This document shows, piece by piece, positions 2,210 through 62,113 of a DNA stretch of 64,000 nucleotides. The position numbers and the translations under genes are program-made. The stretch comes from Candidatus Multivoradales bacterium (GTDB lineage: Bacteria > Acidobacteriota > Thermoanaerobaculia > Multivoradales > Multivoraceae). The stretch is from assembly GCA_965223325.1 (NCBI GenBank), contig CBDCWI010000001.1, positions 800,001-864,000 on the forward strand. The letters run 5' to 3'. Position 1 is the first letter of the stretch. The number at the start of each line of letters is the position of its first letter. The notes below the pieces were generated by a model that was not told where the DNA came from, ran no database searches, and saw only the letters and a list, made by a program, of their open reading frames with translations.

Positions 2210-3181
2210 ATGACGCGTACGACCCCGACCCCCGCTACCGAAGAAACACTATCGCCACGAGGTGCGAGCTCGCGAATTCGCGCGGTCGTCGACCGCCAGG
2301 TGCTCTCCGATGAGACCGCCAGCCTGATCGAACAGATCAACCAGGCCCGGCGCGGAATGAAGAAGAAGGAGCGGCGCGAACTGGTCGACGCCGCGCTCCT
2401 GCGCTACTTCCAGTCAACCAGTCTCAAGCCCTACCAGGCCGAGCTCATCAAGCTGCAGCAACACATCGAGCGCACCAAGAGGAAGGCGATCATCCTCTTC
2501 GACGGGCGCGATGCGTCGGGCAAGGGCGGCACCATTCGTCGTGTCACCCGTTACATGAACGAAAAGCACTACCGGGTGGTGGCGCTCGGCAAGCCCACCG
2601 CCGAACAGCGCACCGAGCTCCACATGAAGCGCTACATCGAGCAGTTTCCCCACGCTGGCGAGATGGTCCTTTTCGATCGCAGCTGGTACAACCGGGCGAT
2701 GGTCGAGCCGGTGATGGGCTTCTGTACGCGCAAGCAGTACAAGCAGTTCATCAAACAGGTGCCGGGTTACGAGAGCCGCATCATTGCCGACGGCAAGACG
2801 GCACTCATCAAGCTCTACTTCTCCGTTTCGAAAGTCGAGCAGCAGCGGCGCTTCAACCGCCGTCGCAACGATCCTCTCCGGCAGTGGAAGCTCAGCGAAG
2901 TCGATCTCCAGGCCCAGGAATTGTGGGACGAGTTCACGGAGATGAAGTACAGACTGCTCAAGAGGACCCATACCGAGGAATCACCCTGGTGGGTCATCCG
3001 CTCCGACAACAAGCACAAGGCTCGGCTCGAGACCATCAAACTCATCCTCAACCAGATCAAGTACCGGGGCCGCAGGCGTTCACTCGACTTCTCGCCAAAC
3101 CCCGAGGTGGTGATCCCTGGCAACGTTGAGATGGAGCTGATGAAGAAGCAAAAACGCAAGCACGGTAAATTCACCAGCTGA
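2210..3181 (+). CDS. ppk2: Polyphosphate kinase 2
   Basis: DGRDASGKGG Walker A, FDRSWYNR, WKLSEVD, lid motif IRSDNKHKARL. ATG 2210 chosen after GAGGAAG; the ORF is open from 2123. Confidence 0.93.
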   Translation: MTRTTPTPATEETLSPRGASSRIRAVVDRQVLSDETASLIEQINQARRGMKKKERRELVDAALLRYFQSTSLKPYQAELIKLQQHIERTKRKAIILFDGRDASGKGGTIRRVTRYMNEKHYRVVALGKPTAEQRTELHMKRYIEQFPHAGEMVLFDRSWYNRAMVEPVMGFCTRKQYKQFIKQVPGYESRIIADGKTALIKLYFSVSKVEQQRRFNRRRNDPLRQWKLSEVDLQAQELWDEFTEMKYRLLKRTHTEESPWWVIRSDNKHKARLETIKLILNQIKYRGRRRSLDFSPNPEVVIPGNVEMELMKKQKRKHGKFTS

Positions 3182-3186
3182 GAACC

Positions 3187-4359
3187 ATGGCAAGGACTAG
3201 AAAGAAGAGGCGCGGTAGGAAGGTGGCCCAGAAAGCAAAGAAGAAGCCGACCGAGAAGAAGGTCGCGAAGAAGAAGGCCGCGAAGAAGAGGGCCACTAAG
3301 AAGGTGGCCAAGAAGAGCGCAGCCAAGAAACGGGCCGCAACCAGAAAGAGGAGCGCGGCCACGCAACCCAGGAGCAAGAAGGCCTCCGGGAGGCGAGTGG
3401 CTGCCAAGGGGGTAAAGGGAAGTAGAGGAACTCCGAAGCCCACCGCCGCCAGCAAGCGCGCCGAGGCGAAGAGCGCGCAGTCCAGCAAACAGAAGCTCAC
3501 CGAACATCGTGCCCGCAAGAGCGTCGACAGCACGCCTTCGAAGAAGCGGCACGCCGTCTGGGTCAAAAAGAAGACGCTCGCCTACGAGCAGGAGCTCCAT
3601 CGACTGCAGATCGAGCTCGCCAAGATGCAATCAGATGTCAGGCAAGACGGAAGGCGGATCGTCCTGGTCTTCGAGGGGCGCGACGCCGCCGGCAAGGGCG
3701 GCACCATCAAGCGCTTCAACGAGCACCTCAACCCGCGTGGCGCGCGGGTTGTGGCGCTCGAGAAGCCCAGCGACCGGGAAGTCACCCAGTGGTACTTCCA
3801 ACGCTACGTCGTACACCTTCCGGCGGCCGGGGAGATCGTCTTCTTCGACCGCAGTTGGTACAACCGGGCACTCGTTGAGCCGATCATGGGGTTTTGCACC
3901 GACGAAGAAAACAAGCGCTTCATCAAGGACGTGCCCCTGTTCGAGCAAATGCTGGTCAAAGACGGCATTCAGCTCTTCAAGTTCTACTTTTCGGTGTCGA
4001 AGAAGGAGCAGCGGCGGCGCTTCGACTCCCGCAAGACAGACCGTCTCAAGCACCACAAGATCTCGCCAGTCGACGAGCGCGCCCAGGAGCTCTGGGATCA
4101 CTACACCGTCAAGAAGTTCCAGATGCTGTCTGAGACCAACCGCACGATCGCCCCCTGGACGATCATCCGCTCCGACAACAAGAAGCTGGCGCGCCTCAAC
4201 TGCATCAAACACGTGCTCTCGCACGTCGAATACGAGGACAAGGCACCGAGGAAGGATCTCGATCCGGACCCGAAGATCGTCGTCTCTGGAATCGACGAGC
4301 TCAAGATGATGGAACAGAGTCTGATGACCCACGTGCCGGTGCGCGAACTCTCGACCTGA
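3187..4359 (+). CDS. ppk2: Polyphosphate kinase 2 with Lys/Ala/Arg-rich N-terminal extension
   Basis: EGRDAAGKGG, FDRSWYNR, IRSDNKKLARL; first ~120 aa are low-complexity and basic (KKVAKKKAAKKRATKK). Confidence 0.93.
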   Translation: MARTRKKRRGRKVAQKAKKKPTEKKVAKKKAAKKRATKKVAKKSAAKKRAATRKRSAATQPRSKKASGRRVAAKGVKGSRGTPKPTAASKRAEAKSAQSSKQKLTEHRARKSVDSTPSKKRHAVWVKKKTLAYEQELHRLQIELAKMQSDVRQDGRRIVLVFEGRDAAGKGGTIKRFNEHLNPRGARVVALEKPSDREVTQWYFQRYVVHLPAAGEIVFFDRSWYNRALVEPIMGFCTDEENKRFIKDVPLFEQMLVKDGIQLFKFYFSVSKKEQRRRFDSRKTDRLKHHKISPVDERAQELWDHYTVKKFQMLSETNRTIAPWTIIRSDNKKLARLNCIKHVLSHVEYEDKAPRKDLDPDPKIVVSGIDELKMMEQSLMTHVPVRELST

Positions 4360-54508: not shown

Positions 54509-55822
54509 TCACGCGTCGTGAGCAATCTCGGGTAGCAGCTCGACGCGAACCGGCATGAGGTTCCAGGTGAACCGGCCGAGACCGTCGAGGTGCAGGGTGA
54601 GCAGTTCTTTGTGCCACTCGCCGCCCGAGTACACGTAGCGGTTGATCTCGTCGTGATCGTCGCTGGCAACGTAGAGCTCATCGGTGCCGTCGCCGTCAAG
54701 GTCTGTCAGTAAGGCCGCATGCTCGAAGCCGCCGGAGTCGGCGTCGATCAACTCCTTCTGCCACTCCCCATCGACCGAGCGCAAGAGAAACACGCCGGCC
54801 TGCTTGGCTGCCGCCACCATTTCCTTCTTGCCGTCGCCGTCGATGTCACCGGCAGTCAGAAAGCGGGTCAGCGAATCGTCGATGGTGGCGACGATCTGCC
54901 CGGCTGCAGGATCGGTATCTGCGTCGTAGCGTCGGATCTCGACCTCCCCACCCGAGACGGCCTCGATCGCGACGTAGAGTTCATCGCGACCATCACCATC
55001 GACGTCATCGACGAGGATCTCTTTGGCGTGCCGGTCGCCCATCTCCACGACGACGGTGCGTTCGCCGCCAGCCGCCGGGACGTATCGCACAACCCAGCCC
55101 TCCTGGTGCGAACCGTCCAGCTTGTTGGGCTCACTGGGCGTGGCGTAGACCTCCATCGCCCCATCGCCATCGAGGTCTCCGATCTCGACCTCGTGCACGA
55201 TGATTGCGTCGTCGCTGCTGTCGAGCAGGTCGACCTCGAAGCTGCCGTCGTCATGCGGACGCAACACGGCGACCTCGCCGCGGTCGTGGGTCGCGATGGC
55301 GATCGCCAGCGTGCCGTCGCCGTAGATGTCACCGACTTCGCCGTCTCGCATGCGAGAGAACTTGCCTCCGAAATCTTTCTGCCAGAGCGTTTCCTTCTCG
55401 CCGTTCGGACGCCACAGCTTGACCACGGCCGCGGTCCCACCGAGGGTCAAGATCCCGTCGCCGTACTCCATCGCCTTGTGGAAGACGTTGCTGTCGGAAT
55501 CTTCGAGGTAGCCGTAGTCCCAGAGCCCATCTTTCCGGGTCACCACGCCGAGCCTGGCGGGCAGGAGCTTCGGGCTGCCGTCGTCGTTCTTGTCGATCGC
55601 CGCCAGAGCGACCAACAAACCGCGGGAAAGGTCATCGGGCACGGTGGGCGATACCGCGGCGTCGGTGGAGCCGGCATCGCTCTCTTCGTTGGCAGTTTCT
55701 CCTCCGCTGCAGCTGGCCAGCAAGCCAACGAGGAGAATAGCCGTCAGGAGGAGTCGAAGAAGCGCTCGACGCTCGGGCACTGGACGATAGGAGAAGGGGT
55801 CAACGGGTTGGCTCGGGTTCAT
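54509..55822 (-). CDS. FG-GAP/VCBS repeat lipoprotein
   Basis: Lipobox LASC; five DxDGDG Ca-binding-type loops. Confidence 0.8.
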   Translation of the reverse strand: MNPSQPVDPFSYRPVPERRALLRLLLTAILLVGLLASCSGGETANEESDAGSTDAAVSPTVPDDLSRGLLVALAAIDKNDDGSPKLLPARLGVVTRKDGLWDYGYLEDSDSNVFHKAMEYGDGILTLGGTAAVVKLWRPNGEKETLWQKDFGGKFSRMRDGEVGDIYGDGTLAIAIATHDRGEVAVLRPHDDGSFEVDLLDSSDDAIIVHEVEIGDLDGDGAMEVYATPSEPNKLDGSHQEGWVVRYVPAAGGERTVVVEMGDRHAKEILVDDVDGDGRDELYVAIEAVSGGEVEIRRYDADTDPAAGQIVATIDDSLTRFLTAGDIDGDGKKEMVAAAKQAGVFLLRSVDGEWQKELIDADSGGFEHAALLTDLDGDGTDELYVASDDHDEINRYVYSGGEWHKELLTLHLDGLGRFTWNLMPVRVELLPEIAHDA

Positions 55823-56097
55823 GAAATCGTTCTCTCTTGGTGTTCACCCTGAACCGCTCCCCTGCTGGCAACCTGCAGGTGTGGCCGTTCGAGGCGGGTG
55901 TCGCCGCGGCAGGACTCTCGAGGGCGCAGTGGTAAAACGGCGACGGGCAGCGGGCGCGCTCGGGGCGCCAACCGGGGTGGCTGTCTCCTGGGGAGTCGAG
56001 GAGGCCTCGACGGTACTGAAGCTGTGGCGATCCTAGCAGTCTCCTCGGCCGCCGGGGCCGGATCGGCTGACACTCCACCGTGCTACCCTGCCGCGCG

Positions 56098-56688
56098 ATG
56101 TCAGCCGCCGCTTTTGCCCAGCGCCTCCACCGCCTCGGCGCCGTCCAATTCGGAGAGTTCACCCTCAAAGACGGCTCGCTATCGCCGGTCTACTGCGACC
56201 TCCGGCTACTCATCTCAGACGCGATGACCCTGCGCGCCGCCGGCGACGAATTCGCCCGCCTGCTGGCCAGCCTGCAGTTCGATCGGCTGGCAGCGATTCC
56301 CTACGCTGGACTGCCGCTGGGCACGGCCGCGGCCCTGGCAGCCGAGGTGCCACTGATCTTTCCGCGCAAGGAGAAGAAGGAGTATGGCACCGGGAAGACG
56401 ATCGAGGGGCGCTTTGCCCCTGGGGAGCGCGCCGTGGTGCTCGACGACTTGATCTCGAGCGGCAAGAGCAAGCTCGAGGCCATCGCCCCGCTCGAAGCCG
56501 CCGGGCTCGAGGTGTCCGACATCGTCGTGCTCATCGACCGCCGACCTGCCGGACCCTGCGAGGTCGAGGACGCCGGTTACGCGGTGCACGCCGCGTTCAC
56601 CCTGCCCGAGATTGCTGCCGCGCTTGCCGACGGTGGACGGATTGAGGCGAGTGAACGGCGGGCGATCGAGAAGTTCCTCGGCGGTTGA
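56098..56688 (+). CDS. pyrE: Orotate phosphoribosyltransferase
   Basis: FGEFTLKDG..SPVYCDLR, RKEKKEYGT, VVLDDLISSG PRPP motif. Confidence 0.92.
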   Translation: MSAAAFAQRLHRLGAVQFGEFTLKDGSLSPVYCDLRLLISDAMTLRAAGDEFARLLASLQFDRLAAIPYAGLPLGTAAALAAEVPLIFPRKEKKEYGTGKTIEGRFAPGERAVVLDDLISSGKSKLEAIAPLEAAGLEVSDIVVLIDRRPAGPCEVEDAGYAVHAAFTLPEIAAALADGGRIEASERRAIEKFLGG

Positions 56689-56716
56689 GCCCCGGCGGGT
56701 CGACCGAACCACTTCG

Positions 56717-57000
56717 AACCGCAGCACTCGCCAGAACAGGGACGGCTCGATCTCCGTCCTTGCCGCTTTCTTTGTTGCTTCTTGTGGTTGGTGGTTGTGG
56801 TTGGTTGTTGGTGGTTCGTGGTTGGTGGTTGGTTGTTGGTGGTTCGTGGTTGGTGGTTGGTTGTTGGTTGTTGGTTGTTGGTTGTTGGTTGTTGGAGATG
56901 TTGGGGCGGGATCGGCCGTGCGGGCGGGCGATGGGCGACGGTCCAGGGCACGGCGACGCTTTTTCGGACTGCGGTGGGTAGCGCCACCTGCGCTCGACGG
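56717..57000 (+). repeat. Left copy of an inverted repeat pair, interrupted by a microsatellite
   Basis: AACAGGGACGGCTCGATCTCCGTCCTTGCCGCTT and TCCAGGGCACGGCGACGCTT match the reverse complement of 58514-58702. Confidence 0.85.
56783..56895 (+). repeat. G/T-rich microsatellite (GGTTGTT/GGTTGGT-based)
   Basis: About 110 bp of almost only G and T, ending in a run of GGTTGTT heptamers. Confidence 0.93.
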
Positions 57001-57100
57001 CCGCGTATCGTTTGTCGCCTGCGATGGCAGTACTAGTTCGGCCGTCGAGGGCACCCTGGACCGTCGCCCATGCGCCCGCCCGCACTCTCGCGCTACAAAC

Positions 57101-57647
57101 ATCGTCAGCACGACAGGTGGGGACGCGGCATCTGGACGGACGGGGATCTCGCTCAGGGCGGGGGGTTGGGTGGTGGCGTGTCGGTTGGGAGAGAGCTGGG
57201 CTGTCTACCGCTGGCGAGGTCACTGAGAGAGCTACGACCATCGTCAGCACAGGAGGGGGGGCGCCGGCATCTGGACGGACGGGGATCTCGCTCAGGGCGG
57301 GGGGTTGGGTGGTGGCGTGTCGGTTGGGAGAGAGCTGGGCTGTCTACCGCTGGCGAGGTCACTGAGAGAGCTACGACCATCGTCAGCACAGGAGGGGGGG
57401 CACCGGCCTCTGGACGGACGGGGATCTCGCTCAGGGCGGGGGTTGGGTGGTGGCGTCTCGGTTGGGAGAGAGCTGGGCTGTTCGCCGCTGGCGAGGTCAC
57501 TGAGAGAGCTACGACCATCGTCAGCACAGGAGGGGGGCGCCGGCATCTGGACGGACGGGGATCTCGCTCAGGGCGGGGGTTGGGTGGTGGCGTCTCGGTT
57601 GGGAGAGAGCTGGGCTGTTCGCCGCTGGCGAGGTCACTGAGAGAGCT
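57101..57647 (+). repeat. G-rich tandem array, four units of 138-139 bp
   Basis: ATCGTCAGCA at 57101, 57240, 57379 and 57517. Confidence 0.95.
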
Positions 57648-57782
57648 CGATTGAGCCGGTTGGACCGGTTGCCCGGGTCGACCTACGCGGGACGGAACTA
57701 GGATCGGCCGCCGACTGATCGCCCGAGTCGAACCGCAGTGATCGCCGGACTGAAGCCGCTATTCGGCTGTATCGTGTCTATG

Positions 57783-58493
57783 ATGGCTACTGACCGGATA
57801 TCAGAGGCGCGTCAACGCGCCACGCTCCGTGCGCTGCTCGTGGCGACCCTGGAGCTCGGTCGGGTTCCGACCCGGGCCGAGCTTGGCGATCGGGTCGAAG
57901 GCACGCCGGATGCACTTCGGCGGGACCTCATCGCGCTAGCGGAAGCACACGAGGTGGTGCTGGAAGACACCCTCGAGGTGCGCATGTTGATGCCGTTCTC
58001 GGCGCGCCAGACGCAGCATGTCGTCCGCGCCTCAGGACAGAGGTGGTTCGCCAACTGCGCCTGGGATGCGTTGGGCATTCCCCAGGCACTTGCAGGGATG
58101 GGGACGGCGAAAGAGCGAACCAGTGAACCGGCGTGGCCCCTCGGCGCGGCCATCGAGACCAGCTGTCCAATCACCGGCGAGATCTTCGGAGTCGAGCGAG
58201 GAGATCCCTGGTGCGCACACTTCGCGGTTCCCGCCAGCCGCTGGTGGGAGGACATCGGCTTCACCTGAGCGACCATCCTGTTCTTCCGGTCGGAAGAAGA
58301 CGTTTCGAGATGGTGCAAGGAGCGGCGATCAGACCCCGGTGCCATTCTCGATCTAGAGACGCTCAACGACCTGGCAAGCATCTGGTGGGGAGGCCGTTTG
58401 CGTCCCGACTGGCGTCGTAGGACACTAGTCGAGGCGCAGGCAGTCTTCGAGAGTCTCGGGCTGACCTGCTCCTTCTGGGACCTCAGCGCATGA
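57783..58493 (+). CDS. MerB-like organomercurial lyase, predicted selenoprotein (UGA 58266-58268 = Sec)
   Basis: N-terminal HTH, MPFS, FANCAWDA (CxxD); the frame continues for 74 codons after the TGA (ATILFFRSEE...FWDLSA*). Confidence 0.8.
58281..58298 (+). promoter_or_regulatory. Putative bacterial SECIS hairpin
   Basis: TTCTTCC-GGTC-GGAAGAA perfect 7-bp stem with a G/GU-containing apical loop, starting 12 nt after the in-frame TGA. Confidence 0.72.
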
Positions 58494-58513
58494 CAACGAG
58501 CAAGGACACCGGA

Positions 58514-58702
58514 CCGTCGAGCCTAGCCTCTATCGAGGCCAGCGGGCGGCGCTGCCCGCGGTAGTCCGAACAAGCGTCGCCGTGCCCTGGAGCGCCGCCC
58601 ATCGCCCTCCACACGGCCGACCCTGCCCCAACACTTCCGACAACCTGAACCGAGAAGCGGCAAGGACGGAGATCGAGCCGTCCCTGTTGTGGTACTGCGG
58701 TT
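58514..58702 (-). repeat. Right copy of the inverted repeat pair
   Basis: Its reverse complement aligns with 56717-56770 and 56899-57000. Confidence 0.85.
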
Positions 58703-58926
58703 GGGTCGCGAGAACTCTGAGGTGCCGGAGCTTTGCGCGCCGACTTTCGGCTGGCAAGAGAATGTGAGATTCTTCCCGTTCGCCAACCACCGACAACTCG
58801 ATCTCGCATCCAACCGGCCGCCCGCTGCCACGCGCTACCAGCGTGGAGCGCCGTTCGCCGCCCAGATGGCCTGTCGCTGAAACGACAGAGGGCCCACTGC
58901 GTACACAAGAGCGACACCCCTTCACC

Positions 58927-60150
58927 ATGGCCATGACCCAGCACACCGACTCCGAATCCCCGCGACCCAAGCTCGACCTGTCGGCGCTCTCGATGGACGA
59001 GACCGAGCGCGAACCGCCACGCCGGCGCCTGGGGCTCCTGGCCGCCATCCTCTTGCCGTTGGTTGCGATTGCCGTCCTGGTGATCCCGCGGCTCGACCTG
59101 CCGTTCCTGCTTCCCGAGGTCGAGACCACGACCGTCCAGAGCATCACCCCCACCCAAAGCCAGACAGTGCTCACCGCGACCGGCTACACCTATGCCCGCA
59201 CCCGCGCCGCCGTGGGTTCGAAGATCATTGGGCGGGTCGTTGACCTGCGGGTCGACGAAGGCGACCGCGTCAGACGCGGCGATGTGATCACGGTGCTCGA
59301 CAGCGACGACCTGCGCGCGGCGCTGCGCCAGGCGGAGGCCCGGCTCGCCGAGGCAGAGGCGCGTCTCGTTGACGCCGAGCGTGAGTTCGGCCGCCAAGAG
59401 CGTCTGGTCGACGCCGGCATCAACGCCCAAGCGGCCTACGACAGCGCCGAGACCCAGCTCGGCATCGCCCGCGCCACCGTCGACACCGCCCAGGCCGCCG
59501 TCGATTCGGTCAACGCCAACCTCGCCTACACCGTCATCCACTCACCCATCGACGGCGTCGTGATCGAACGCAACGTCGAGGTCGGCGAAATGGTGGCGCC
59601 CGGCGGCTTCACCAGCCAACAGTCGACCGGTGCCATCGTTCGCCTCGCCGACCCCCAGTCGCTCGAAGTCGAAGCCGACGTCAACGAGTCCTATGTGTCG
59701 CGGCTGGTTTCCGGCATGCCGGCGCGCATCAAGGTCGACGCGGTCCCTGACCACACCTACAACGGCGAACTGCGGCAGATCGTGCCGACGGCCGATCGCC
59801 AGCGCGCCGTGGTCGAGGTCAAGGTCACGATCGACGACCGCGACGAGCGCCTGGTGCCTGACATGAGCTGTTCGGTGACGTTTCTCGAGGAAGGCACCGA
59901 TCGCGCGGCGCTCGACGCCGAGCCACGCTTGATGGTCGCCGGTTCAGCGCTCCTCTATGAAGGGGGCGAGGTCTTTGTCTATCGGGTCACCGAAGGGCGG
60001 CTGCGCAAGGTGCGCGTCGACGTCTCGGAGGGTGACGGAGCTGCAGCCGACATGGTTCAAGTCACCGGCGGAGTCGCAGCCGGTGACGTGCTCGTGCGAC
60101 GCCCAACCGCCGAGCTGAGCGACGGTCTCGACGTGCGAGTCGCCGGGTAG
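58927..60150 (+). CDS. Efflux periplasmic adaptor subunit (MacA/HlyD-like)
   Basis: TM anchor, lipoyl-like halves (VDEGDRV, SPIDGVV..VEVGE), helical hairpin. Confidence 0.9.
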
Positions 60151-60227
60151 CACGCCCCGCAGAGCATCGCCGGCGGTATGGTCAAGAGAACCCCACGAAG
60201 AGTGAACGTCTTTCCAGGAGAGACCGT

Positions 60228-60965
60228 ATGTCTGAAGCCAATAGCCCGCTCGTCCACGTCGAGAACGTCGTCAAGACCTACGAGCGCGATTCATTCGAGA
60301 TCAAGGTACTCGATGGTCTCTCGCTGGTCGCCAATGAAGGTGAGTTCCTGGCGCTCATGGGGCCCTCGGGCTCCGGCAAGAGCACGCTGCTCAACCTGTT
60401 GGCCGGCATCGACCGTCCTACCTCCGGCAAGATCCGCGTTGCAGGCCAGGACGTCACCAGCCTCAGCGAGTCTCAGATGGCACGCTGGCGACAGCGCCAC
60501 ATCGGCTTCATCTTCCAGTTCTACAACCTGGTACCAGTGCTCAACGCGTTCGAGAACGTCGAGCTCCCGCTCACCCTGACCCGGCTGGGAAAGGCCGAGC
60601 GCAGGAAGAAGGTCGAGGTGGCGCTCGAGGTCGTTGGCCTCGCGGACCGCATGACGCACTATCCGCGCCAGCTTTCGGGCGGCCAGGAACAGCGCGTCGC
60701 CATCGCCCGCGCCATCGTCACCGACCCGACCCTCTTGCTCGCCGACGAACCCACCGGCGACCTCGACGCCGAGTCCGCAACCGAGATCCTCGACCTCCTC
60801 GGAGCCTTGAACAGCGACTACGGCAAGACCATTCTGATGGTCACCCACGACCCGCGCGCCGCCCAGCGCGCCTCGCGCCAGATCCGCCTCGACAAGGGGC
60901 GCCTGATCGATGGCCAGGACCACGTCGACGCTGCGGTCACGGCCGCCGAGGAGGTCTCTGCATGA
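60228..60965 (+). CDS. ABC transporter ATP-binding protein (MacB/LolD-like)
   Basis: [28 protein letters not shown]. Confidence 0.95.
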
Positions 60966-62113
60966 TCCGCCTGGTCTGGCGCAACCTGTTGCGCAACAAG
61001 CGCCGCACCATCCTCACCGTCTTGAGTGTGGCGATGGCGATCTTCCTGTTGGTTCTGCTCGGCTCCGTCCTCCAGGCGATGACCGACGTCGGCAACCCCA
61101 GTGAGGCCAGCATGCTCGTGGTTCGCAACGCGATCTCGCTCACCTTTCAGATTCCCGAGGCCTACGGCCCGCGCATCGCGGCCCTCCCCCACGTGGTGGC
61201 GGTGACACCGCTCGACTGGTTCCAGGGGGTCTACAAAGACAACCGGCCCGAGAACTTCTTCCCGCGCTTCGCTACCGATCCAGAGACTTTGCGTGACGTG
61301 TTCACCGACGTCACTGTCGATGAGGCTCAGTGGGACGACTTCCGGCGTGAACGCACCGCCTTCGCCAGCGGCCGTCGCCTGGCCGAGAAGCAGGGCTGGG
61401 AGATCGGCGATGTGATCGCCATCAAAGGCGACATCTACCCGGTCGACCTCGAGTTGACCTTGCGCGCCATCTTCACGTACCCCGGCAACGAGGGCCAGGA
61501 GAACCTGATCTACCTGCACCGTAAGTACGTTCAGGAGGCGATTGGCAACCCGGGCACGGTCAACAACTTCTGGCTCCAGATCGACGATCCGGAGAACGCA
61601 ACGGCGGTGATTCGCGAAATCGAAGGCATGTTCGAGAACTCGCAGGCCCAGGTGCGCGCCGAAACCGCTCAGGCGTTCGCACTGTCGTTCGTCAACATGC
61701 TCGGCAACGTGCGTTTTCTGTTCGGCTCGATCGGCCTGGCCATCGTGGTCTCGATTCTTCTCATCACCGCCAACACCATGGCAATGGCGGCGCGCGAAAG
61801 AACCCGTGAGGTCGCCGTGCTGCGCACCCTCGGTTTTCGCCGCGGGCAGGTCACCGCAATGGTCATTCTCGAGGCGTTGGTCGTCGGAGTGGTTGGCTCC
61901 GCCCTCGGGCTCGCCGGCGCGACGATGGTCACCCGTGCCATCGATCCGATCCTGCAGGAGAACGGCCTGTCGTTTTCGAACCTCGCCATCGACCCACAGA
62001 GAGTGGCGATCGGCCTCGCCATCGGCCTCTTGATCGGCCTCATTGCCGGCGCCTTCCCAGCCTGGACCGCATCGCGCATGAAGATCGTCGACGGCTTGAG
62101 GAGAATCGCGTGA
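60962..62113 (+). CDS. ABC transporter permease (MacB/FtsX-like)
   Basis: [24 protein letters not shown]; ATGA overlap with the ATPase gene. Confidence 0.92.

Follow-up and report, generated by a model that had tools for sequence, protein, structure and literature searches.

A predicted selenocysteine-containing MerB-like protein of a Candidatus Multivoradales bacterium, outside the SaoL family

Does an in-frame UGA codon cut short a MerB-like gene, or does it encode selenocysteine (Sec)? The question is raised by a stretch of 64,000 nucleotides (nt; the window, always meant here at its full length) from a Candidatus Multivoradales bacterium of the phylum Acidobacteriota (assembly GCA_965223325.1, contig CBDCWI010000001.1, positions 800,001 to 864,000 of the forward strand). 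An open reading frame (ORF) of the window, running from GTG 57738 or ATG 57783, halts at TGA 58266-58268 after the residues ...WWEDIGFT. As had been recognised in an earlier reading of the letters alone (the sequence-only reading), the frame continues beyond this codon, and 74 more in-frame codons (ATILFFRSEEDVSRWCKE...FWDLSA) lead to a TGA at 58491-58493, the place that matches the ends of the read-through ORFs of homologues. The read-through coding sequence (57783..58493, + strand) consists of 236 codons plus this terminal TGA and contains one internal TGA only. It is present as a single copy in its genome. Comparison of homologous loci suggests that the UGA at 58266-58268 very probably encodes Sec, as residue 162 of the product, and that the gene is an intact selenoprotein gene. 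The interpretation as a whole, a Sec-decoded MerB-like protein that may act as a lyase and belongs to a separate clade, is held with strong confidence.

Conservation of the UGA codon and of the hairpin behind it

The set of homologous loci used for comparison comprises 160 loci, namely the best 80 of at least 591 relatives found in genomes (one genome per species) and the best 80 of at least 588 found on metagenome contigs. TGA is present at the Sec column in 159 of these loci: in 79 of the 80 from genomes, where the homology runs on to residues 232-236, and in all 80 from metagenomes. The remaining genome locus, that of Blastococcus jejuensis, the only named isolate among the 80, carries TAG at this column (L096:4397-4399) with the downstream hairpin intact and is probably a disabled copy. 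Read-through ORFs of 210-250 codons with their own stop are found in 138 of the 159 TGA loci. The stop is preceded by Thr in most of the 160 loci, by N, S or A in a small number and by Cys in none. Among the holders of the gene, to judge from the names of the metagenome-assembled genomes (MAGs), are Gaiellaceae, Gemmatimonadota, Chloroflexota, Acidobacteriota, Actinomycetes, Planctomycetota and others.

The same codon recurs nearer to the window. In an evenly drawn sample of 400 genomes of its phylum, 37 matches besides the window's own were found at E <= 1e-10; TGA is present in 27 of the 29 matches with about 200 bits or more, the other two being stop-free, and in 25 of 27 when two genomes flagged as unpublished (G063, G189) are set aside. 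Of 40 genomes related to that of the window, seven gave a strong match, and TGA is present in each of these.

Protein databases hold both the Cys-coding counterparts and the remains of the UGA-coding form. A protein search gave 600 relatives, and the 120 listed consist of the window's own entry of 162 amino acids (aa), 14 full-length proteins (220-240 aa) and 105 short ones (134-189 aa). Cys stands at the TGA column in 12 of the 14 full-length matches, with one Arg and one Trp, and each of the eight short matches that were aligned stops exactly at the Thr preceding this column. An exhaustive search of 1.84 billion cluster representatives (50% identity) returned 967 with E <= 0.001, of which 233 reach E <= 1e-10. 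The column was analysed in 149 of the best 150, the window's own entry being left out. Cys is present in 82 of the 93 representatives that span the column, which bears out the pairing of Cys with UGA that the sequence-only reading had proposed as a check. N-terminal fragments make up 52 of the 149 representatives, 45 of them ending exactly at residue 161, and four are C-terminal fragments whose first residue lies at 165-167, just past the TGA. We read this pattern as the signature of a gene split by gene callers at its Sec codon. The clade is large, extends across many phyla and is cut by the callers into fragments of about 148 aa and about 72 aa.

A perfect hairpin of seven base pairs (bp), TTCTTCC-GGTC-GGAAGAA, lies 12 nt past the TGA at 58281-58298 (+ strand), where the sequence-only reading had placed it. 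It is the predicted upper stem-loop of a Sec insertion sequence (SECIS), with the stem at 58281-58287/58292-58298 and the apical loop GGUC at 58288-58291. The bacterial SECIS model, as given in a review (PMC13188914, Fig. 2), allows loops of 3-9 nt and upper stems of 4-16 bp, asks for a G within the first two positions of the loop and for 16-37 nt from the UGA to the loop, and sets the minimum free energy at -7.5 kcal/mol or lower. With its 4-nt loop beginning with GG, 7-bp stem, UGA-to-loop spacing of 19 nt and a 24-nt core of -8.8 kcal/mol, the hairpin of the window agrees with the published model on every criterion.

The hairpin is conserved together with the codon. TCCGGTCGGA does not vary in the genome alignment (81 sequences), where pairing of the stem amounts to 95.2%. 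The metagenome alignment is more diverse, and in it the stem is 93.1% paired although both sides vary in four of the seven pairs; the closing pair is CG in 70 sequences, UA in 4, GC in 3, AU in 2, UG in 1 and another combination in 1. The covariation score of this alignment is 0.183 compared to 0.116 +/- 0.008 for shuffles, none of 500 shuffles reaching it, and pairing drops to only 47-62% when the partner is slid by 1-3 columns. At the level of codons, the Arg of the hairpin is encoded by CGG in 145 of the 160 loci and by AGG in 2, with CGC, CGT, CGA and AGA in none, and the Ser is encoded by TCG in 150. The exceptions compensate one another: AGG is accompanied by TCT in both of its loci, the two changes being synonymous, TGG by TCA in four loci of five (the fifth has a G-U pair) and GGY by TCC or GCC in three of three. 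The loop reads AGUC in five loci, with the G at the second position kept. The synonymous codon bias and these compensatory exceptions place the constraint on the RNA as well as on the encoded F-R-S-E-E peptide.

Two stop-free relatives in the window's phylum (G280 and G061) have TGC at the column; the hairpin is absent from both and neither has a GGUC loop. Their sequences are ...TTCAGGGACGAG... and ...TTCACGAACGAG..., and the core energies amount to -4.0 and -2.0 kcal/mol, respectively. Among the 12 full-length matches that bear Cys, R-S-E is kept in three. A candidate lower helix of the predicted fold (about 58272-58277/58308-58313) is specific to the sequence of the window and not conserved. 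A search of 55500-59500 against Rfam at E <= 1 returned no SECIS family; its only three matches lie below threshold and are put down to chance. As a separate observation, contigs of other organisms in two metagenome runs (at least six and at least seven contigs) match the window solely over 58241-58303, with a likeness of 85-90%; this segment holds the UGA and the hairpin, and the confinement of the matches to it fits the most conserved DNA of the gene.

The genome of the window possesses the machinery for inserting Sec, the presence of which the sequence-only reading had proposed as a check. The models for selA (449.1 bits), selB (296.9 bits, or 327.4 with its C-terminal piece) and selD (222.8 bits) all score above their curated cut-offs, and a tRNA-Sec is found with 71.9 bits, which ARAGORN reports as tRNA-SeC with the anticodon tca. 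A formate-dehydrogenase-like frame of 995 codons with one in-frame TGA (C2:861336-862079) is likely a second selenoprotein of this genome. The selD gene itself lies inside an open frame of 769 codons (C1:1388290-1390062), the upstream part of which matches the FAD/NAD region of pyridine-nucleotide-disulfide oxidoreductases, and may be an oxidoreductase-SelD fusion.

Fold, active site and competing explanations

The product of the read-through frame matches the Pfam family MerB (PF03243) with 74.6 bits (cut-off 27) over residues 72-201, that is, across the TGA. A profile made from the window protein and 22 homologues was compared with solved structures, where it finds MerB2 (5c17) at E 2.8e-18 and the MerB chains 3f2g, 3fn8 and 1s6l at E 2e-11 to 8e-11. 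In the alignment to the MerB chains, NCAWD falls on WCALD of MerB, so that Cys92 (codon TGC, 58056..58058) is the equivalent of Cys96 and Asp95 (codon GAT, 58065..58067) that of Asp99. The TGA column coincides with Cys159, the first Cys in 'fCSHVHFF' (by its title, 3f2g is a C160S mutant), and the UGA lies five residues upstream of FF. Both assignments had been put forward in the sequence-only reading, and the profile alignment upholds them. According to a study of MerB (PMC8261052), Cys96, Asp99 and Cys159 are essential in this enzyme and the Asp is the proton donor. Going by the alignment and the predicted fold, the catalytic triad of MerB appears to be kept with selenium in place of one sulphur, as Cys92/Asp95/Sec162 for Cys96/Asp99/Cys159.

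The residues of this putative site are conserved in the family. The Cys92 column is invariant in two protein alignments and holds Cys in 159 of the 160 loci with the Sec form, the remaining locus having TGA, and the Asp99 column holds Asp in 160 of 160. Downstream of the TGA, W201, G226 and W232 are invariant in an alignment of the window protein with read-through homologues. One metagenome locus of the 160 (L115) has a TGA in the Cys92 column (WWAN-TGA-AWD, 3052-3054) and another in the Sec162 column (3238-3240), the frame being open otherwise, and this may be a double-selenocysteine form. Among the Cys-form representatives the Asp99 column is different, with Cys in 38 of the 73 aligned ('CAWC') and Asp in 25. 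Sec going with Asp, and Cys often with Cys, looks like a correlated switch in the metal site.

An AlphaFold model built with 59 sequences has a mean predicted local distance difference test score (pLDDT) of 93.8 and a predicted template modelling score of 0.90, with no segment below 50. Helices are predicted in the N-terminal part at residues 2-25, 31-35 and 42-54 (pLDDT 85-97), while residues 161-237 are modelled with pLDDT 91-98, the part downstream of the UGA completing the MerB core. Foldseek against the PDB gave 11 matches at E <= 0.001, every one of them a MerB or MerB2 structure (E 5.8e-8 to 4.4e-5, template modelling (TM) score 0.44-0.65, probability 1.00).

If the UGA is read as Sec, a mechanism can be proposed. 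The GGUC-loop hairpin would recruit SelB and tRNA-Sec while the ribosome nears the UGA, and decoding of the codon as Sec would give a 236-residue product of MerB fold with a Cys92/Asp95/Sec162 site. An organometal or organometalloid would then be held between the Cys92 thiolate and the Sec162 selenolate, and protonolysis by Asp95 would split its carbon-metal bond. By analogy with MerB, we give even chances to the protein binding an organometal(loid) and cleaving the carbon-metal bond by Asp protonolysis. An organomercurial is a possible but doubtful natural substrate.

The explanation that survives best beside this one overlaps with it: a genuine selenoprotein that is no lyase and serves in metal(loid) binding, buffering or sensing, or a winged-helix regulator with a Cys/Sec sensor. 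Such a role would agree with the N-terminal helical, winged-helix-like domain (57783..57962, about residues 1-60), since the Foldseek matches that follow those to MerB and MerB2 are winged-helix repressors (the DNA-binding domains of LexA/DtxR, E 0.26-0.8) covering the first ~60 residues only, and LexA is matched at E 0.18 in the profile search. However, the true MerB has the same N-terminal domain and is no regulator, and in the profile search MerB2 is aligned from profile position 17 onwards. No MerA, MerT or conserved partner was found that could remove the metal product, and the Cys in place of Asp in 38 of the 73 Cys-form relatives makes a three-thiol site typical of binding. MerB variants are reported, in a preprint, to bind other metals (bioRxiv 10.1101/2022.07.06.499078). 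For mere binding, however, the proton-donor Asp found in every one of the Sec-form loci would be superfluous, and Sec is costly and typically kept at catalytic sites. Because this Asp is kept in 160 of 160 and is the proton donor of MerB, we favour catalysis over mere binding, and a purely non-lyase role seems unlikely.

It is very unlikely that the UGA is a true stop and the protein one of 161 residues that lacks the second metal ligand, with the downstream part untranslated or made as a separate small protein. The four database fragments that start just past the TGA could be taken in this sense, and wherever a bacterium uses a Sec codon, the insertion of Sec is in competition with termination. 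On the other side, the 74 downstream codons are in frame and conserved at the protein level in all loci, the downstream part is joined to the upstream part in the Cys-coding homologues, and in the model it completes the MerB core. Moreover, the codon bias and the compensatory changes of the hairpin fit an RNA signal, not a second start.

Still less room is left for a read-through without Sec, whether a near-cognate tRNA inserts Trp, Cys or Arg or the code is reassigned, in which the hairpin would be a general stimulator of read-through. In its favour, a few homologues have W (3), R, Q, Y, H, L, S or A at the column, several of these being one base from TGA. Cys, which is the usual partner of Sec, is nevertheless the dominant alternative residue (82 of 93). 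The code of this genome does not seem reassigned, because the gene itself ends with TGA and the other genes were found without internal stops under table 11. The hairpin fits a SelB-type model in its first loop positions (G) and its spacing of 19 nt, and the full Sec machinery is present, so that such a reading is highly improbable.

The least credible explanation, a private nonsense mutation, a lesion of a pseudogene or a sequencing error with a relic of a frame behind it, finds some footing in gene callers stopping at the TGA (the window's database entry has 162 aa, that of a GenBank relative 151 aa) and in the TAG copy of Blastococcus jejuensis, which shows that dead copies exist, but it is contradicted by the TGA at the same column in 159 of 160 loci of many phyla, by a downstream frame that is open and conserved with W201, G226 and W232 invariant, and by contigs from two studies that show no difference, and can be dismissed as next to impossible. 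As to these contigs, the stretch is identical in those of two runs of one study, possibly the source of the window's DNA, and a 151-nt contig from a further study covers 58125-58275 without a difference, TGA included.

Several points weigh against our interpretation, some bearing on Sec decoding and others on the enzyme. The selenium in the protein is argued for by comparison and not by direct evidence, and no RNA run was found to contain the gene. The start codon is uncertain, ATG 57780, ATG 57783 and the in-frame GTG 57738 all being possible, and neither a promoter nor a terminator consensus was found in 57400-58900, leaving start, ribosome-binding site and promoter unfixed. Folded as a single sequence, 65 nt give -17.5 kcal/mol with z = 0.34, and 125 of 200 shuffles are equal or better; we take the hairpin as more than a product of chance because of the comparative evidence, that is, the TGA in 159 of 160 loci, the conserved pairing and the compensatory changes. 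A conserved lower helix (alignment columns 9-12 with 36-39) was considered and rejected, as it is paired to 78.7% and columns 9 and 39 do not pair in 33 of the 81 sequences. The distribution of the gene is patchy close to home: a genome of the same genus has no match, genomes of the family have two in 24, one of them weak, identity to any homologue found is at most 49%, and the gene may be a recent arrival in this genome. Nor can an association of the TGA form with selA be judged from the kin, as 40 of the 41 genomes carry selA.

As regards the enzyme, the argument is one of homology throughout, and the models for MerB proper (NF033555 and PRK13239) are matched with 24.4 bits against a cut-off of 200 and 23.8 against 193. 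No recurring neighbour was found at 13 other loci (74 ORFs, scanned with Pfam). The release of Hg(II) without MerA in genomes that have MerB only is described as an open problem in PMC8261052, and the activity of organisms with MerB only as never reported. If mercury were the metal, we would expect a bond between Hg and Se to be even more difficult to break.

Genomic neighbourhood

Five neighbours of the gene in the window were identified: an FG-GAP repeat protein, pyrE (122 bits, with the cut-off at 106.8), an adaptor of the RND type, an ABC ATPase and an FtsX permease. None of them matched a Sao or mer model of NCBIfam, so that the absence of merA, merR and merT noted in the sequence-only reading holds for these neighbours. 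It extends to the whole genome as far as the models go: MerT has no match, and MerA and MerR have none above the cut-off, the best being 404.5 against 454.45 bits and 142.5 against 150.85 bits, both on the other contig. A mer operon context (merA, merR, merT/P) can accordingly not be assigned to this gene. Downstream of the gene and on its strand (58843-62113), the RND-type adaptor, the ABC ATPase and the FtsX/MacB-type permease form a MacAB-like efflux set, which was not seen beside the homologues at the 13 other loci. Class I methyltransferases are found beside three of these 13 loci, a recurrence that we take as chance.

Inverted copies of a repeat about 200 nt long flank the gene on both sides, at 56731-57017 and 58497-58692, with four collinear pairs of arms that are 73-97% complementary. 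About 20 more matches of this repeat are scattered over both contigs, several in nearby pairs, and it looks like a dispersed intergenic repeat resembling a miniature inverted-repeat transposable element (MITE). Within its left arm lies a microsatellite of the GGTTGTT/GGTGGTT type (56783-56911), with a period of 14 nt and seven overlapping copies. Most of the gap upstream of the gene is taken up by a unit of about 139 nt that is repeated four times head to tail (57092-57644), the later copies being 94%, 60% and 61% identical to the first; they have no Rfam match.

Relation to known lyases and selenoproteins

The place of this gene among the catalogued selenoproteins was sought in family models and in the literature. 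In Table 1 of a 2026 review, which counts 119 prokaryotic selenoprotein families and subfamilies, the sole MerB entry is SaoL (NF040728, CU motif). Two reviews credit a 'MerB-like' selenoprotein to the GOS paper of 2008, and the one of 2022 also to the Peng paper of 2016. The main text of the GOS selenoproteome has no alkylmercury lyase, and four of its supplementary files do not contain 'mercury', 'MerB' or 'lyase'; the main text of Peng et al. 2016 likewise has no such wording. The literature searched for MerB-like selenoproteins yielded SaoL only, and an earlier sighting of the present clade under another name is possible. No model of NCBIfam release 20 claims the family, and a GenBank entry of the same group is annotated as a truncated 'organomercurial lyase' of 151 aa.

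If the interpretation is right, it has consequences for annotation and for the search for mercury genes. Hundreds of database entries of this group would be halves of one gene. Surveys of merB demand Cys at position 159, according to PMC8261052, and the Sec clade would be invisible to them because it fails this filter and its proteins are recorded truncated. Should these proteins demethylate methylmercury or cleave another organometal(loid), a hidden pool of such activity would be missed in this way. It is conceivable, and put forward tentatively, that the Cys/Asp/Sec clade consists of stand-alone, MerA-independent carbon-metal(loid) lyases in many phyla, mostly of soil and marine lineages. 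A selenolate at the metal site should alter both reactivity and product release, and the pairing of Sec with Asp as against Cys with Cys would mark a switch from metal binding to catalysis. For the selenoproteome, the clade would be a further MerB subfamily in lineages, by their MAG names, outside the strict anaerobes of SaoL.

SaoL, the 'selenocysteine-assisted organometallic lyase', is the nearest precedent. As described by Haft & Gwadz (bioRxiv 10.1101/2022.07.06.499078), it belongs, like the window protein, to the MerB family (PF03243), has Sec on Cys159 with the equivalents of Cys96 and Asp99 kept and is represented by UGA-truncated database entries. According to the same source, it carries a C-U motif and is encoded in a nine-gene SAO locus of strict anaerobes. 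The window protein differs from it in having T-U (F-T-U-A) in place of the C-U dipeptide. Whereas SaoL, as that text describes it, sits in its SAO locus, the T-U gene has no conserved neighbourhood at the 13 other loci scanned with Pfam, nor a Sao match among its five neighbours in the window. It scores 24.9 bits on the SaoL model against a cut-off of 140. Over 59 family members, the best E-value is 3.6e-16 on the SaoL model and 1.4e-20 and 7.3e-15 on two MerB models, and we infer that all 59 lie below 140 bits on the former. The statement in the sequence-only reading that Sec-containing relatives of MerB had been reported is correct insofar as SaoL exists, but the gene of the window is not a member of that family.

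MerB itself (EC 4.99.1.2, plasmid R831b; 1S6L, 3F0O, 3F0P, 3F2F) resembles the window protein in fold (Foldseek E 5.8e-8, TM 0.52-0.61), in the positions of the triad and in the N-terminal domain. The two are 19-21% identical. In the MerB signature Cys96/Asp99/Cys159, to which Christakis et al. (PMC8261052) add Cys117, the equivalent of Cys159 is here the UGA codon, so that Sec would replace this Cys. MerB continues with a second Cys (C159-C160), which is lacking after the Sec of the window protein. The latter also has a C-terminal extension of about 35 residues that contains the invariant W201, G226 and W232, and it has no mer operon. MerB2 (5C17) is the best match among solved structures both in sequence and in fold (E 2.8e-18, TM 0.57-0.65, root-mean-square deviation 3.9). 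It differs in having Ser where the window protein has Asp ('CAIST' against 'CAWDA') and in using Cys, not Sec, as the second ligand.

The closest in architecture are the Cys-coding members of the clade (P0003, P0004, P0007-P0015, G280 and G061), which share the length and the domain arrangement of the window protein, including its C-terminal extension, and are 32-44% identical to it. They differ in having TGC/Cys at the column, in not keeping the hairpin and often not keeping F-R-S-E-E, and many of them read 'CAWC'. Because the curated models of SaoL and of MerB are not reached, the motif is T-U and not C-U, and SAO and mer neighbours are absent, we consider the gene distinct from SaoL and from the true MerB, and read it as a member of an uncatalogued T-U Sec clade of the MerB family.

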